From: Carcharhinus longimanus
Lineage: Eukaryota
Assembly (NCBI GenBank): GCA_030264375.1
Contig: JASCQW010000133.1
Location: forward strand, 36,936,409-37,000,408
Length of the DNA stretch: 64,000 bases
Direction of reading: 5' to 3'
This document shows, one piece after another, positions 3,001-30,000 of the stretch (position 1 is the stretch's first letter; each line of letters starts with the position of its first letter). Position numbers: made by a program.

Positions 3001-6000
3001 ACCCCCCACATTTTCATCTCTATTGTTATGTATACAACAAACAATAAAGCTCTGAGCTCTGAACCTTGTGGTACACCACTGGACACCAGCATCCAGTCAC
3101 TGGAACAACCTTTTACCACTATTCTTCCAAGTCCTGTTTGTAAGCCAGTTTCTCACCAAAGTTCCCTGAATTCCATATGTTTTAACCTTCTCAATCAATC
3201 TCCATGTGGGACCTTGTCAAAAGCTTTGCTAAAATCCATATAAACTACATCAATGGAACTTCACTCATCCACACACAGGGTGACTTTTTTGAAAAATTCT
3301 AACAAATTTGTTAGGCATGACCTCCCTCTGACAAAGCCATGCTGACTACCCCTAAGCAACCCATGCCTTTCCAAATGAACATTAATTCTTCCCTTCAGAA
3401 TTTTCTCCAACAGTTTCCCTACCACTTACGTGAGCCTCACCAGTCTGTAACTTCTTGGTTCATCTATACCATCTTTCTTGAAAAGTGGAACCACGTTAGC
3501 CATCATCCAGTTCTCTGGCACTTCTTCCGTGGATAGAGAGGAATTAAAAATTTGTGTCAGAGCGCTTGCAATTTCCTGCCTCTCCTCCCACAGCAGTCTG
3601 GGATGCAATTCATCTGTGCAAGGGGATTTATCCATTTTTAAGTCCGTTAGAGCCTCCAATACCTTCCCATTTGTTATTTCAAACTGTGCAAGTTCCTCTC
3701 AGTCCTACTTCCTGAATTCCACACCTATATTTTCCTTTTGATGGCTCTGTGGTACTGAGCAATACAGTAAGGCAAATTTCTGGTTGCATGTCTACTAAAT
3801 GCTGGTATAGGATGCTGAATTATCTGATTGCAGCCAAGGCAACAGTAAGAACAACTCCAGTAATCCAAGGTTCCTATTCCTCATCATAATCAAATAAGTT
3901 CTTGAAAAGTCCACCTGGATGGATATCAAATAAGGGTAGGATATGATTTGGTTGCAATGCTCTTCAGGGACAAACAGTCCACTAGTTTTTAAGTTACTGA
4001 TGTAACTTAAACATTTGACAACGGTTTCATGGCTGTGATTGATAGCAGCTGTAGAACTACTGTTCAAATGTAATCAGCACTTTCAGGAGAAAGGAGAGAC
4101 AAAGATCAAACAAAGATCAAATATAAATGCCCCAAACAACCCTCGCCTTGGAATTTTTTTTACAAATACAGACTCACCATGCCTTTGTTTCCAATCCCAT
4201 TTGTTGTGCAGATTTTGAGCAATTTGAAAGATATGGGCTTCTTATTCAACTCAGCTCCAAGGGCTGGTGTATCTGAATGGATATACATTCCACTTGATTG
4301 CTGTGCAATTTTCAAAGAAGGAAACACAAATGGTTCAGAAACATAAGGACTTAAGAATAGAAAAAAGCAATTCAACCAGTTTGCCTTAGTATGTTATTTA
4401 TGTTCACGTGCATGATTGTTCAGTCATTTTTGATTTACCTCCAGTATGGCACTAACCCGTTTTGTTCTGTTTCAGTGCTTAAGGTGGTTATGGCATGGCA
4501 TTTCAGCTCTTAAACAAGTTACTTAACTGATTTCCACTTGTTAACAGGGTACTCATGAATTGACAGTTGCATTAGTTAGACCTTTATGTTTTTTGCAATG
4601 CATGATTAAGAACGTAAATACATGACCTGAGCTTCTCCCATATGTATAGTAACTCCAATCTTAGTTTCAATGTGCTATTACTGCTGTGACCCACTTCCAA
4701 ATCCCACCTAGTCAAGTCACTGCCAATTCACTTTGGCTTGCTATAGTTGAGTATATGGGTTAGGTTGGATACATGCTTGATGATACCGTGCCTTTAAGAA
4801 ATATAATTATATTGTGTTTCTTATAAGGGATATGTTTAAAATTCAGTTCTGTTTTACATGGTGCCAATTTGTCTGGGCACCAGGCAGCTCATATGCTGAG
4901 AATGCAGGCTAAAATAGATTTTAGCTAGGGATGTGTTTGTGTTGTTGAGTTAATGATTTTTTTTGTTATTTGTGGTTCTGGAGTTTCAGAATAGGATTTT
5001 GATTAGGTTGATTGACACAGACAGTCATATGTTCAAGGGGAGAAGCTAAGCTTACATGGGAAAGCAGGCAGTTACTGCTGGGTTCTGAAAGAAACAAGAC
5101 ATGTCTCTGTCTTATTCTTTTTAGAGGCTGCTGTTTTGTTTCTCTCTCCCTAGAGGTTGCTGCCTGGGACCTGCTGGGAGAAATAGATCTTCCTCTCTCT
5201 GTATCTCTCTTTAGAAGTGTTCTAGAGATCTGAGGGTTGGCAGCCCAAGTGCATGCATGTGTGTCTTGATCTTGCGGAGCAGTTTAAGTCTATAAGAGGA
5301 ATATTGCTTGAATACAATTCCTATGTATCTTGTCATGTTTAAGTATTGCTCAGTTGGTAAAAGTTAAGCTAATTCCTTTTTTTATGAGTTAAATGTATTG
5401 TTAAATAAAGTTTGTTTTGATAAAAGCTTACTAGTGTATCAACAGAATCACATCTGGAGTGAAATGCCTTATCCTCAAATTAATGTCGAAGTAGCAAATG
5501 TTTGGGGTCTAGTCTAACTTCATAATATACCTTGGGTTTCTGATCTGATACTTGAATGAAATGGGCATGTATAGACTCAGATGGCCTACCAAGCTGCCCC
5601 ATTCAGATATGCACAGCATTGACCAACCACTAATCTGGCAGGGACAAAAATAAGGGGAATAACCTTATACCAACAATCTTGTCCCTATAACCAGGAATAT
5701 TCCCCTCAGTTAGAAAACTGTTAAATTATCTTTTGAAGGACAGCATTAAAGCCATACCTACTTTCAGGTAATCTAATCCAGACTACTCTGTGAATAGATT
5801 CCTGCCATCTCTAATCATACACTCCTATTTTAAACTATTTAAAACTCCTATTTTAAATTTCAGGAAATGTAATATCTTCTTAAAATGGACTTCTTATGCA
5901 CTCCTCAATCTATGTATTCGAACTGATCAGCTTCCACATTAATCAGTACCAAAGAAATTTGATGATTTTGATAATCTGGTCACTGAATTATATATAGCTA

Positions 6001-27000: not shown

Positions 27001-30000
27001 TGTGACTTTTAAGCGGCGTCCAGACAAAAACATGAATAGGATGGGAATAGAGGGATATGGTACCCGGTGAGGAAAGGGGTTTTAATTAAGTCGGGCGGCA
27101 TGGTCGGTGCAGGTTTGGAGGGCCGAAGGGCCTGTTCCTGTGCTGTAATTTTCTTTGTTCTTTGTTTAGATGCTATAATAGTTGCAAGTTTCTGTAGACA
27201 TGCTGGATGGGCTAACGCTCTCCCTTGTCATATATCTGTGTGATTTTAGTTAATCTATTCCAAATATGAACAATCTGAATTCCTTGATTTAACAATTCAC
27301 TTTCTGACATCTGTTATTCTATCTATACACCGTCACCATTCATACCCTTCAGTTGGCTTGCTACTAACTGCTGGCTTCCCTTTGCTATCTACATAAACCA
27401 TCAGAAATCCTGAATGATTACATCTTGTAACTCATTGACCGTTGCATGTCCATTCTCGCACTAATTGTGCAATAGCAATATCTTATTCTGGTAAGTAGAT
27501 GATTATGTACGTGAGAGGCAGATATTCTTGTCCTTGCAAATAGGCATAAAGGATCATCTGGCGCAGGACCATGTCAGACAATGTCGCAAACGTTTTTCAG
27601 ATCACGGTGGACCTCCAGGACTGGCATCACCGGATGACAATGAGGAATTTGGAACTTATTTCAGCCACTCCTCCATCCCATGGAATGACCCGGAGGCCAG
27701 TGGGCACCCTGATAGAGGAGAAAGTGCTGAAGCCCATCGTGTTGCCTTCCACCAGGGAGACCCTGGCAAGCTCCAGCACTTCTGAATCCCCGCCCAACAC
27801 CAACGCTCCTACTGGGATTCGGGAAGAACAGAGTGATATGGCAACACCTTGGTACCTAAATGTCAGCCAGGCCCCTCCAGGCTGAGGCCCTCCAGAAGCC
27901 GCCTACTGAGAGCATCACTGGCCAAAGGGCATGGAAAGCAGCAGGCTGCCCCTACTTCTGGTGCAGTCTGGGGGTCACCTAGAAGGAGGACATGTAGTTT
28001 GAAGAAATTCTAGAAGCACTGAGTTGGAACAGGTAAAGTTTCACAATGTTAATTAGGGAGAAGGGGCATCAAATGTTTAAATCCACTATTAAAACCTGTT
28101 TCACTCTTAGTCTGAGTACCTTTCACTGTGTGCGGTCACCCTCATTAGTGAGGGATGAGGGTGGGTGGCTCTTCTGTGTCCAGCTCTGACCTTATCTTTC
28201 CACTAGCTCTGCAGACTTACGCTGAAGTAGAAGGCTATGTGAGCCAGAGTAACACACATCCCAGTTAACAACTAAACAGCTCAGTCCAATTTCCTCTCCC
28301 TTCCCTGAACTCCCCCCACACCCAACCCACAACAACCACCCCCCCCGCCGCCGCCTCACCTCACCTAACCTAACCACTCTACTCCCACCTTACCCTACGA
28401 CAACCACCCCCCAGCCCCGTCTTACCTCCCTCAACCATCCTACCCCCACCTCACCGGCCAGCCCCAACCAACTCACCTGAATTGAATAAACACCCCGCCC
28501 CGGGAGGGTAATAAATTTCGCTCTTTGTGCGCTCACAACTGGTTTTCTGTCGGTATACTCCGCAAATCTGCTCCGACCACAGCCACGCTGAATCTGCCCA
28601 GGCCAGCGATTCATGTCGGCGCAGGCTTTCAGAGCGGGCGGCAGGAACCCTGGCTGATTCATCATCCCTGGTGCTGTCATAGAATTAACACTCAATGTAG
28701 TATTTTTTAATGGTAAAACCTCTTGCAGAAATGAGACTTTCCATTAATTTAGAATGTGTGGACCTGTTTTAAGCCGAAAATCTAAATGCGGTAATGGCCA
28801 TTTCATTTCCAATCCGCAGATAGTATTATTAATGCGGACTGGCCATTTGGCGATGTCTCTGTGGAACCGCATCCTAATATTAGGCAGTGGACTGGAAGGG
28901 GATGGAATAAAGGAAAGGACGTTGGGGGTAAAATCCTCTGGATGATGAAAGGTTACATTGCCTATTACTATACCTTCCTCTGCCCGTCACTATCATCTCG
29001 GTGCCCACTGAATGGAACTTCCTCCACAGTAATTCGTTCTCCTTAACCAGCCTGATGAATGGGACCACCCGGGTGGCCGCCGGATCCTGGCCCTCCATGG
29101 GAGAGGAGGGGAAAATCCACGCTGCGATATGTCGACTTCAGAAAAAGTTTGCAATGAGAAGTTCCCAAGCATCGAGTTCACCGATCCTTCCGATTGCAAT
29201 CACTAAATATCTGATCATCCCGCACCAGTGGAAAAAAAAGATTAATCCTTGTCAGTGGTTAAAACTATCTTTTGTACAATTTAATCCTTTGATTTTTTCA
29301 TCGCGAGATATTTTTTCTATTGATATGTCAAAACCAGGGATACCAGGTTGAGTCCCCGTCCAACGAGGTGTCAGTTACCAAAAACTGCTCACACTCGGGA
29401 TAAAAGGAGCAGATGTAGTGGAGGAGTTAGATGTTGTTATTAAAGACAGTCTAAATTCACACTTTCATCTTCAAGAGAGAGACTGAAGGGTTGCTGATCC
29501 ACTGCCTCGGCATAGCTGAGTGCTGCTGTTGTCTCCTGTTACTCCTTTATCTAACCTCTAGATCGCCTCTCCCGGGCTGCTTTGAGCCTCAGTGTATCTG
29601 TCGCTCTATCTTGGCAGCTTTGTATCTTGCTCCGGCTCTGATCTCCACTCTGTCCCTGGGCTGCGATCCGATCCGCTTTCGTTCCCCGCCTGGAACTGCT
29701 GATCTGATCTCTCTCTATATACAAGACTGGTTTATCCGTCCATCCCTGACTCACCTCTCTCTCTCTTTCTAAAATTTCCTTTATTTCCCATTTGACAAGA
29801 TCTCTTCCGGAAGGACGGTCATCCTTCTTTTCCAGGCTGAACACCGTCGTTTCAGGTTTGCTGTGGTCCAAATATCCTTCTTGATTATTCTTGTTATCAA
29901 ACCTCACCGTCTTTTTCTCTGTAGTTCCATCGTTTCTCCCCGTGCCGTTTTTATCCCTTTCCCTTCACTGTTCTGTCTCCAGTTTGTTGCCTTTTACTTA

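Follow-up and report, generated by a model that had tools for sequence, protein, structure and literature searches.

A stretch of 64,000 nucleotides (nt) from the shark Carcharhinus longimanus (NCBI GenBank assembly GCA_030264375.1, contig JASCQW010000133.1, positions 36,936,409 to 37,000,408 of the forward strand; hereafter, the window) was found to carry three minus-strand exons that encode the first part of a divergent T-domain. The best explanation is that the window probably holds the 5' part of a single-copy T-box gene of cartilaginous fishes (chondrichthyans), located upstream of FAM222A, whose product would be a modulator with an altered DNA-contact surface. That the locus is a real and conserved T-box gene can be held with high confidence. 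Public annotation already contains the gene, under automatic names that mislead, and in this sense it is not new to databases, but no description of it was found in the full-text literature (supplements were outside the search).

Exons were translated and searched one by one, such that the count of 133 codons is the sum of exon lengths (125 + 151 + 123 = 399 nt) and all full-length views are those of public orthologues. There was no stop codon in any of the three pieces, all exon borders were GT-AG, and the phases were 2, then 0 (Table 1). The start codon of exon 1 sits 13 codons past an in-frame TGA (29140-29138), and the product of this exon comprises an N-terminal leader and the beginning of the T-domain (...LWRKFHSVGTEMIVTGRG). 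The first G of exon 2 closes a split codon, AG/G (Arg), that is followed by 50 codons; this Arg is the counterpart of the base-reading Arg of T-domains. The Pfam T-box profile (PF00907; 182 positions) matched exon 1 at profile positions 4–25 (E 1.2e-4, 22.5 bits), exon 2 at positions 28–70 (E 7.2e-8, 32.9 bits, above the curated 26-bit cut-off), and exon 3 at positions 79–108 (E 1.7e-3, 18.7 bits), with the segments colinear on one strand. When public orthologues were searched against the window with tblastn, matches fell on exactly these three exons (E 1e-31, 1e-19 to 3e-23, and 2e-19, the last for exon 1 at 29098-28973). Chance is excluded as a source of the exon matches, because the Pfam matches are colinear and the orthologues hit exactly the three exons with E values down to 1e-31.

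An earlier note on this DNA, made from the sequence alone, had described the same three exons, and on re-reading the DNA their lengths, borders, and frames held. The colinearity that it claimed with the T-domain was also recovered, over the first ~60% of the domain, and its description of the gene as intact-looking applies to the three exons in the window, with the C-terminal 40% of the T-domain beyond position 1. The motif readings TGRG(R)CLFP, APARQ, HSDTP, GAELN, and LLKICT were all present in the exon translations. No T-box exon past orthologue residue ~136 was detected at 1-4177 (tblastn with five orthologues and a listing of open reading frames [ORFs]), and because of this the exons predicted to encode IPLTPMHKY...FIAVGHYH...NPYAKGAL must lie left of position 1.

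Four of the 13 runs of unread bases (N) in the window fall within the gene, all of them in intron 1, with the closest lying 2.3 kilobases (kb) away on the exon 1 side and 9.6 kb away on the exon 2 side. No exon is touched, and the scaffold contig that carries exon 1 is not the one that carries exons 2 and 3. The four runs between exon 1 and exon 2 would allow a scaffolding artefact, in which exon 1 and exons 2–3 derive from separate loci merged over the gaps. Such an artefact is hardly credible, given that the strand is the same, the order correct, and the phase matching, that the split Arg codon is closed exactly as in all orthologues, and that each exon is present in only one copy within the window. 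The exon 1/2 junction is contiguous in every orthologous protein (...GRGR/CLFP...), and the gaps therefore do not conceal a further coding exon.

Using exon 2 as a query, 9 of 9 protein matches were chondrichthyan, all with PF00907 and 86–100% identity, and a search with the full orthologue (122–389 amino acid [aa] range) returned chondrichthyan proteins in four of four cases. Together with cluster look-ups, these searches supplied orthologues from 10 species: the sharks Pristiophorus, Mustelus, Scyliorhinus torazame, Cetorhinus, Stegostoma, and Heptranchias, the rays Pristis, Narcine, and Mobula, and the chimaera Callorhinchus. Identity of the window to these models ranged from 27/31 to 36/41 residues for exon 1 (nine models; the tenth, from Mustelus, begins at an alternative exon, 1b, in place of exon 1), from 43/50 to 50/50 for exon 2, and from 31/41 to 40/41 for exon 3. 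The window exons were nearest to carcharhiniform and lamniform sharks (exon 3, 40/41 to Mustelus; exon 1, 36/41 to S. torazame and Cetorhinus) and were identical to those of none of the ten species. Stand-alone orthologue models were 203–227 aa in length, except for the 258 aa model of Mustelus, and consisted of a leader of ~15 residues followed by a single, complete T-domain and a short tail rich in basic residues, with no separate activation or repression region. Full orthologues scored 175.7, 165, and 134.5 bits against the Pfam T-box, of which the 175.7-bit match extends over positions 4–179 of 182, a complete domain.

Across eight complete orthologues, 118 of 183 T-domain columns were invariant, and the chimaera and elasmobranch proteins were 71–80% identical. 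The altered motifs are themselves conserved, being fixed or nearly so throughout the clade: TG(R/K)GRCLFP; SAPARQQ, with APAPQQ in Stegostoma; GAELN, with GVELN in Pristiophorus; and LLKICT, with MLKICT in Stegostoma. At the HSDTP site, individual positions differ between species (S/P/A and D/E/G), and Callorhinchus and Heptranchias possess HPDTP, one step nearer to the canonical HPDSP. A maximum likelihood tree (15 rows, 201 columns) recovered the chondrichthyan clade with support of 100/100 and a stem length of 1.49 changes per site, with end branches of 0.003–0.18 within it and with rays (100/99) and galeomorph sharks (98/95) grouped as in the species tree; the program warned that long branches meet, and the relations among outgroups carry no meaning. 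By these branch lengths the gene appears to have changed heavily before the chimaera–elasmobranch split and to have been near-still since, a burst followed by stasis. The suggestion of a fast-evolving paralogue made in the earlier note thus describes the stem and fails within the clade, where no end branch exceeds 0.18.

A decaying pseudogene with a frame kept open by luck might be suspected from the alteration of the canonical motifs, the location amid retroelement debris, and the absence of the second half of the domain from the window. This alternative is close to refuted by the invariance of 118 of 183 columns over sharks, rays, and a chimaera, the conservation of the altered motifs, the short branches within the clade, the intactness of every splice site, and the complete domain of the orthologues. 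The same observations support the view, already taken in the earlier note along with the placement in cartilaginous fishes, that the gene is constrained and functional-looking and not a relic.

Distance from the known T-box classes was expressed as phmmer bit scores against the solved T-domains of T, TBX5, TBX3, TBX1, and TBX21. In that order, the shark-lineage protein (P0004) scored 135, 134, 132, 116, and 114 bits, a snake MGA 160, 214, 204, 186, and 176 bits, a fungal T-box protein (Anaeromyces) 129, 122, 111, 99, and 110 bits, and a nematode T-box protein 106–113, 121, 92, 94, and 114 bits. Including the comparison to snake MGA itself (103 bits), the shark-lineage scores (103–135 bits) were far below the between-class level for which MGA provides the baseline (160–214 bits), and the gene appears to be about as far from the tested vertebrate classes as a fungal T-box. 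A flat profile of this kind is typical of a long branch and carries no class signal; judged from the scores, the gene would be a long branch equidistant from the T, TBX5, TBX3, TBX1, TBX21, and MGA classes. To this extent the earlier claim that it fits no familiar subfamily stands, the gene being farther from these classes than they are from one another, with Tbx6/Tbx16/VegT, Tbx15/18/20/22, Tbx19, and Eomes/Tbr1 outside the comparison.

Brachyury (TBXT; PDB 6F59 and 1XBR) was the best solved-structure match, over query residues 18–204, and shares the same fold (target template modelling score [TM] 0.86–0.93, root-mean-square deviation [rmsd] 1.8–2.8 Å), but identity was only 34–37% and the shark-lineage protein is without a C-terminal regulatory region. 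After NP(F/Y)AK, the shark-lineage tail keeps a Leu at brachyury L218, the Leu that follows F217. The top rank of brachyury is no evidence of class, because its lead over TBX5 amounts to 1.5 bits and the fungal T-box also ranks T first. TBX5 and TBX3 (Tbx2 subfamily; PDB 2X6U and 1H6F) have the same fold at 38–40% identity, but MGA, from a different subfamily, reaches 204–214 bits on these chains, and the shark gene therefore lies well outside the normal between-class distance. Nematode T-box genes evolve rapidly, and many of their products likewise contain hardly anything beyond the T-domain. The triple T-box protein of Caenorhabditis nigoni (P0015) has a similar distance from the vertebrate classes (92–121 bits) and an equally long stem (1.47 compared to 1.49), but there was no specific affinity between the two (50–64 bits per domain against the shark-lineage protein) and the two long branches stay separate in the tree.

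An exhaustive protein search with exon 2 returned seven matches, three of which were T-box proteins, comprising the cluster to which the gene itself belongs, one protein from a nematode, and a fragment of an ant TBX2. The other four were spurious matches to repeat proteins (pentatricopeptide repeat, Ig-like, fn3, and an unnamed repeat protein). A length-bounded search (1256–3585 aa) returned only the snake MGA and the fungal T-box. No close relative was found outside the cartilaginous fishes in these predicted-protein libraries, in which unannotated genes are invisible. Automatic names of the orthologues in public annotation were "mls-1-like", "VegT-A-like", or those of models fused to FAM222A, and the nearest Atlas clusters, which are generic T-box ones, give no class signal, because the top cluster differed between the shark query ("TBX6L-like") and the chimaera query ("TBX3").

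Some of these names point to the Tbx6 subfamily (Tbx6, Tbx16/VegT/Tbx6L, and MGA), of which the gene could be a very divergent member, either the chondrichthyan orthologue of tbx16/VegT or an extra duplicate lost in bony vertebrates, and not a new class. Tbx6 and Tbx16/VegT proteins are 430–470 aa long with C-terminal regulatory regions. Human TBX6 (16p11.2) lies in what we take to be a block paralogous to 12q24.11, the home of FAM222A, which would make a Tbx6-type duplicate at that location plausible. Divergence in this subfamily is described as rapid, with confusing orthology and lineage-specific loss (PMC3296468, PMC3507223). Membership in the Tbx6 subfamily is nonetheless an unlikely, if credible, reading. 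MGA, the only member compared, was the least similar of the vertebrate T-domains (103 bits compared to 114–135 bits), and the PDB matches included no Tbx6 or Tbx16 structure; the chimaera protein is drawn first to TBX3, leaving the names without class signal; other orthologues carry the name of the nematode gene mls-1; and no literature link was found between vegt/tbx16 and FAM222A, MVK, TRPV4, GLTP, TCHP, or GIT2, in a search that did not extend to supplementary trees and synteny figures. It is rather doubtful, as a wider reading, that the gene represents an ancient vertebrate T-box class of its own, a duplicate from the early genome duplications at MVK-FAM222A that was lost in bony vertebrates and kept only in cartilaginous fishes as a bare T-domain with a re-tooled contact surface, acting as a natural competitor or modulator and possessing an additional isoform fused to FAM222A.

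The protein fold was modelled for the Pristiophorus orthologue and not for the joined exons of the window. An AlphaFold run with 14 near-identical rows had a predicted local distance difference test (pLDDT) score of 35.6 and was discarded, and the addition of MGA, fungal, nematode, and ant rows led to a usable model (pLDDT 77.9, predicted template modelling score 0.73) with a confident core at residues 10–196. All Foldseek matches to the PDB at E ≤ 0.001 were T-domain chains (target TM 0.71–0.93, rmsd 1.8–3.5 Å, 32–40% identity), and on this model the orthologue is predicted to have the T-domain fold.

The T-box element reads AGGTGTGA. In human brachyury, a guanine base is bonded by R69, the minor groove is entered by F213 and F217, and thymine methyl groups at positions 8–9 of the element are contacted by T196 and A197 (PMC11828899). 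Brachyury numbering was set from residue G177D of 6F59, which is chain position 139 (offset of 38). By alignment, two of the five contact residues are kept in the shark lineage, R69 as R42, which is the split codon at the exon 1/2 junction, and F213 as Y192, in which the aromatic is retained; the other three are replaced, T196 by G175, A197 by H176, and F217 by A196 (Thr in the chimaera). Wherever the region was modelled, these replacements were invariant in the clade.

A competitor or modulator mechanism is proposed tentatively on this alignment. The product would be a T-domain protein of the nucleus in which the conserved Arg continues to read DNA while the contact surface is altered, and its preference may have shifted for the 3' part of the element. 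Without an effector domain, it may occupy T-box-like sites or bind the partners of other T-box factors, and would in this way modulate or compete with those factors instead of activating alone.

In 6 of 10 species, the gene model leads without loss of frame from the T-domain, by way of a conserved linker, to the normal start of FAM222A. The species are Cetorhinus, S. torazame, Narcine (with two such isoforms), Mobula, Heptranchias, and Stegostoma, where the model extends further, into TCHP. Because models from six species pass from the T-domain into FAM222A, we infer that the T-box gene would be located directly upstream of FAM222A on the same strand, placing the latter left of position 1. Jawed vertebrates, a catshark among them, share the conserved block MVK-FAM222A-TRPV4-GLTP-TCHP-GIT2 (PMC9664204). 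The fusion models reflect either transcripts that arise by conserved read-through or fusion, or an error made systematically in annotation. Were the six in-frame models taken at face value, the T-box exons could be alternative 5' exons of FAM222A, with a T-domain–FAM222A fusion as the true product of at least one isoform. This is improbable, as stand-alone T-box models with short ends of their own exist in four species, the sequence beyond the shared ...Q junction takes three different C-terminal forms, separate FAM222A models also exist (P0026 and P0028), the Stegostoma model running into TCHP has the appearance of read-through, and the junction region is outside of the window and known from protein models alone.

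Several points weigh against the reading of the locus as a constrained chondrichthyan gene for an altered-surface modulator. The window holds only 60% of the T-domain, the remainder being known from other species alone, and exon 1 is joined to exons 2–3 only across four gaps, such that the length of intron 1 and the join itself are as assembled. The conserved leader upstream of exon 1 is here out of frame with that exon, the frame of which is closed by the TGA at 29140-29138. The class comparison was made without Tbx7/8 in addition to the subfamilies named above, the libraries searched for relatives were limited to predicted proteins, and a bony-vertebrate relative with >50% identity would hide within the same representative cluster of the exhaustive search. 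Loss of the second minor-groove aromatic together with T196 and A197 could leave the protein with little or no affinity for the classical element, and the function of the gene is an inference.

Table 1. Coordinates of the gene and of other features in the window (position 1 is the first base of the window; numbers for minus-strand gene features run in the direction of transcription)
Feature	Coordinates	Strand	Details
Coding exon 1	29098..28974	-	ATG to donor GT 28973-28972; 125 nt = 41 codons + AG; phase 2 out
Coding exon 2	6186..6036	-	Acceptor AG 6188-6187; 151 nt; phase 2 in, phase 0 out; donor GT
Coding exon 3	4300..4178	-	Acceptor AG; 123 nt = 41 codons; phase 0 to phase 0; donor GT
Alternative first exon 1b	8227..8151	-	Inside intron 1; ATG, 77 nt, donor GT 8150-8149, phase 2
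Conserved 5' leader	29172..29107	-	Directly upstream of exon 1 ATG; tblastn of P0010 residues 1-22, 64% identity
Intron 1	28973..6187	-	~22.8 kb as assembled; four gaps, exon 1b, retroelement debris
Start of intron 3	4177..1	-	No further T-box exon
Gaps within the gene	15786-16056, 19105-19204, 22754-22853, 26607-26706		All in intron 1
Integrase (rve) match	13880-14254	-	Intron 1
RT_RNaseH match	14702-14938	-	Intron 1
Retroelement pol fragments	13880-14938	-
	49498-49731	+
Tandem repeat	1100-1666		Period 49, 11.6 copies, 67% matches; intron downstream of exon 3
Shorter tandem array	26517-26600		Period 30; adjoins a gap
Recurring short element	~13235-13523, 24460-24773, 25793-26043, 32409-32756, 35565-35843, 58883-59155	both	Similar translated strings
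Nine further N runs	35455-62811		7 to 454 bases; outside the gene

Upstream of exon 2, residues 1–26 of the Mustelus asterias model (P0005) matched the window at 8227-8150 with 96% identity (tblastn, E 9e-11), which corresponds to exon 1b. A transcript that starts from this exon would, as predicted from its sequence, miss the first ~25 positions of the T-domain (first strand and helix). The leader at 29107-29172 resembles an N-terminal extension in the Stegostoma and Heptranchias models and opens with an ATG in the other frame, overlapping the main start. Possible explanations of this leader are an upstream ORF, an untranslated region, or an assembly slip of 1–2 nt.

No other host gene was found in the window by a Pfam search of 112 ORFs of at least 78 aa, in which retroelement domains and T-box exon 1 were the sole matches and which would overlook a neighbour with short exons, such as MVK. 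There was no Rfam match in the window, and a scan of the window for bacterial promoters and terminators, irrelevant to a vertebrate gene, was at chance level. The fragments of long terminal repeat retroelement pol had matches to the integrase core (E 5e-6 and 1.2e-4) and to the reverse transcriptase RNase H (E 3e-11), and one endonuclease/reverse-transcriptase match occurred among the window ORFs. Two tandem arrays were present, along with a short element that recurs on both strands and is probably a family of repeats resembling short interspersed nuclear elements. Nine N runs lie beyond the gene, such that the upstream 35 kb are pieced together from short contigs.

Few developmental regulators have been charted as well as the T-box genes, whose set in vertebrates tends to be regarded as closed. 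With the gene described here, this set would gain a member that is restricted to cartilaginous fishes and has been constrained since before the split of sharks and chimaeras, a T-domain-only protein in which three of five DNA-contact residues are changed. Its automatic names (mls-1-like, VegT-A-like) and its merging with FAM222A or TCHP in six species can corrupt the orthology tables of three genes. It would offer a natural experiment on what a T-domain is capable of without an effector region and on shifts in the reading of DNA, and would be a further example of a regulator that cartilaginous fishes have retained and that is missing or unrecognisable in bony vertebrates.

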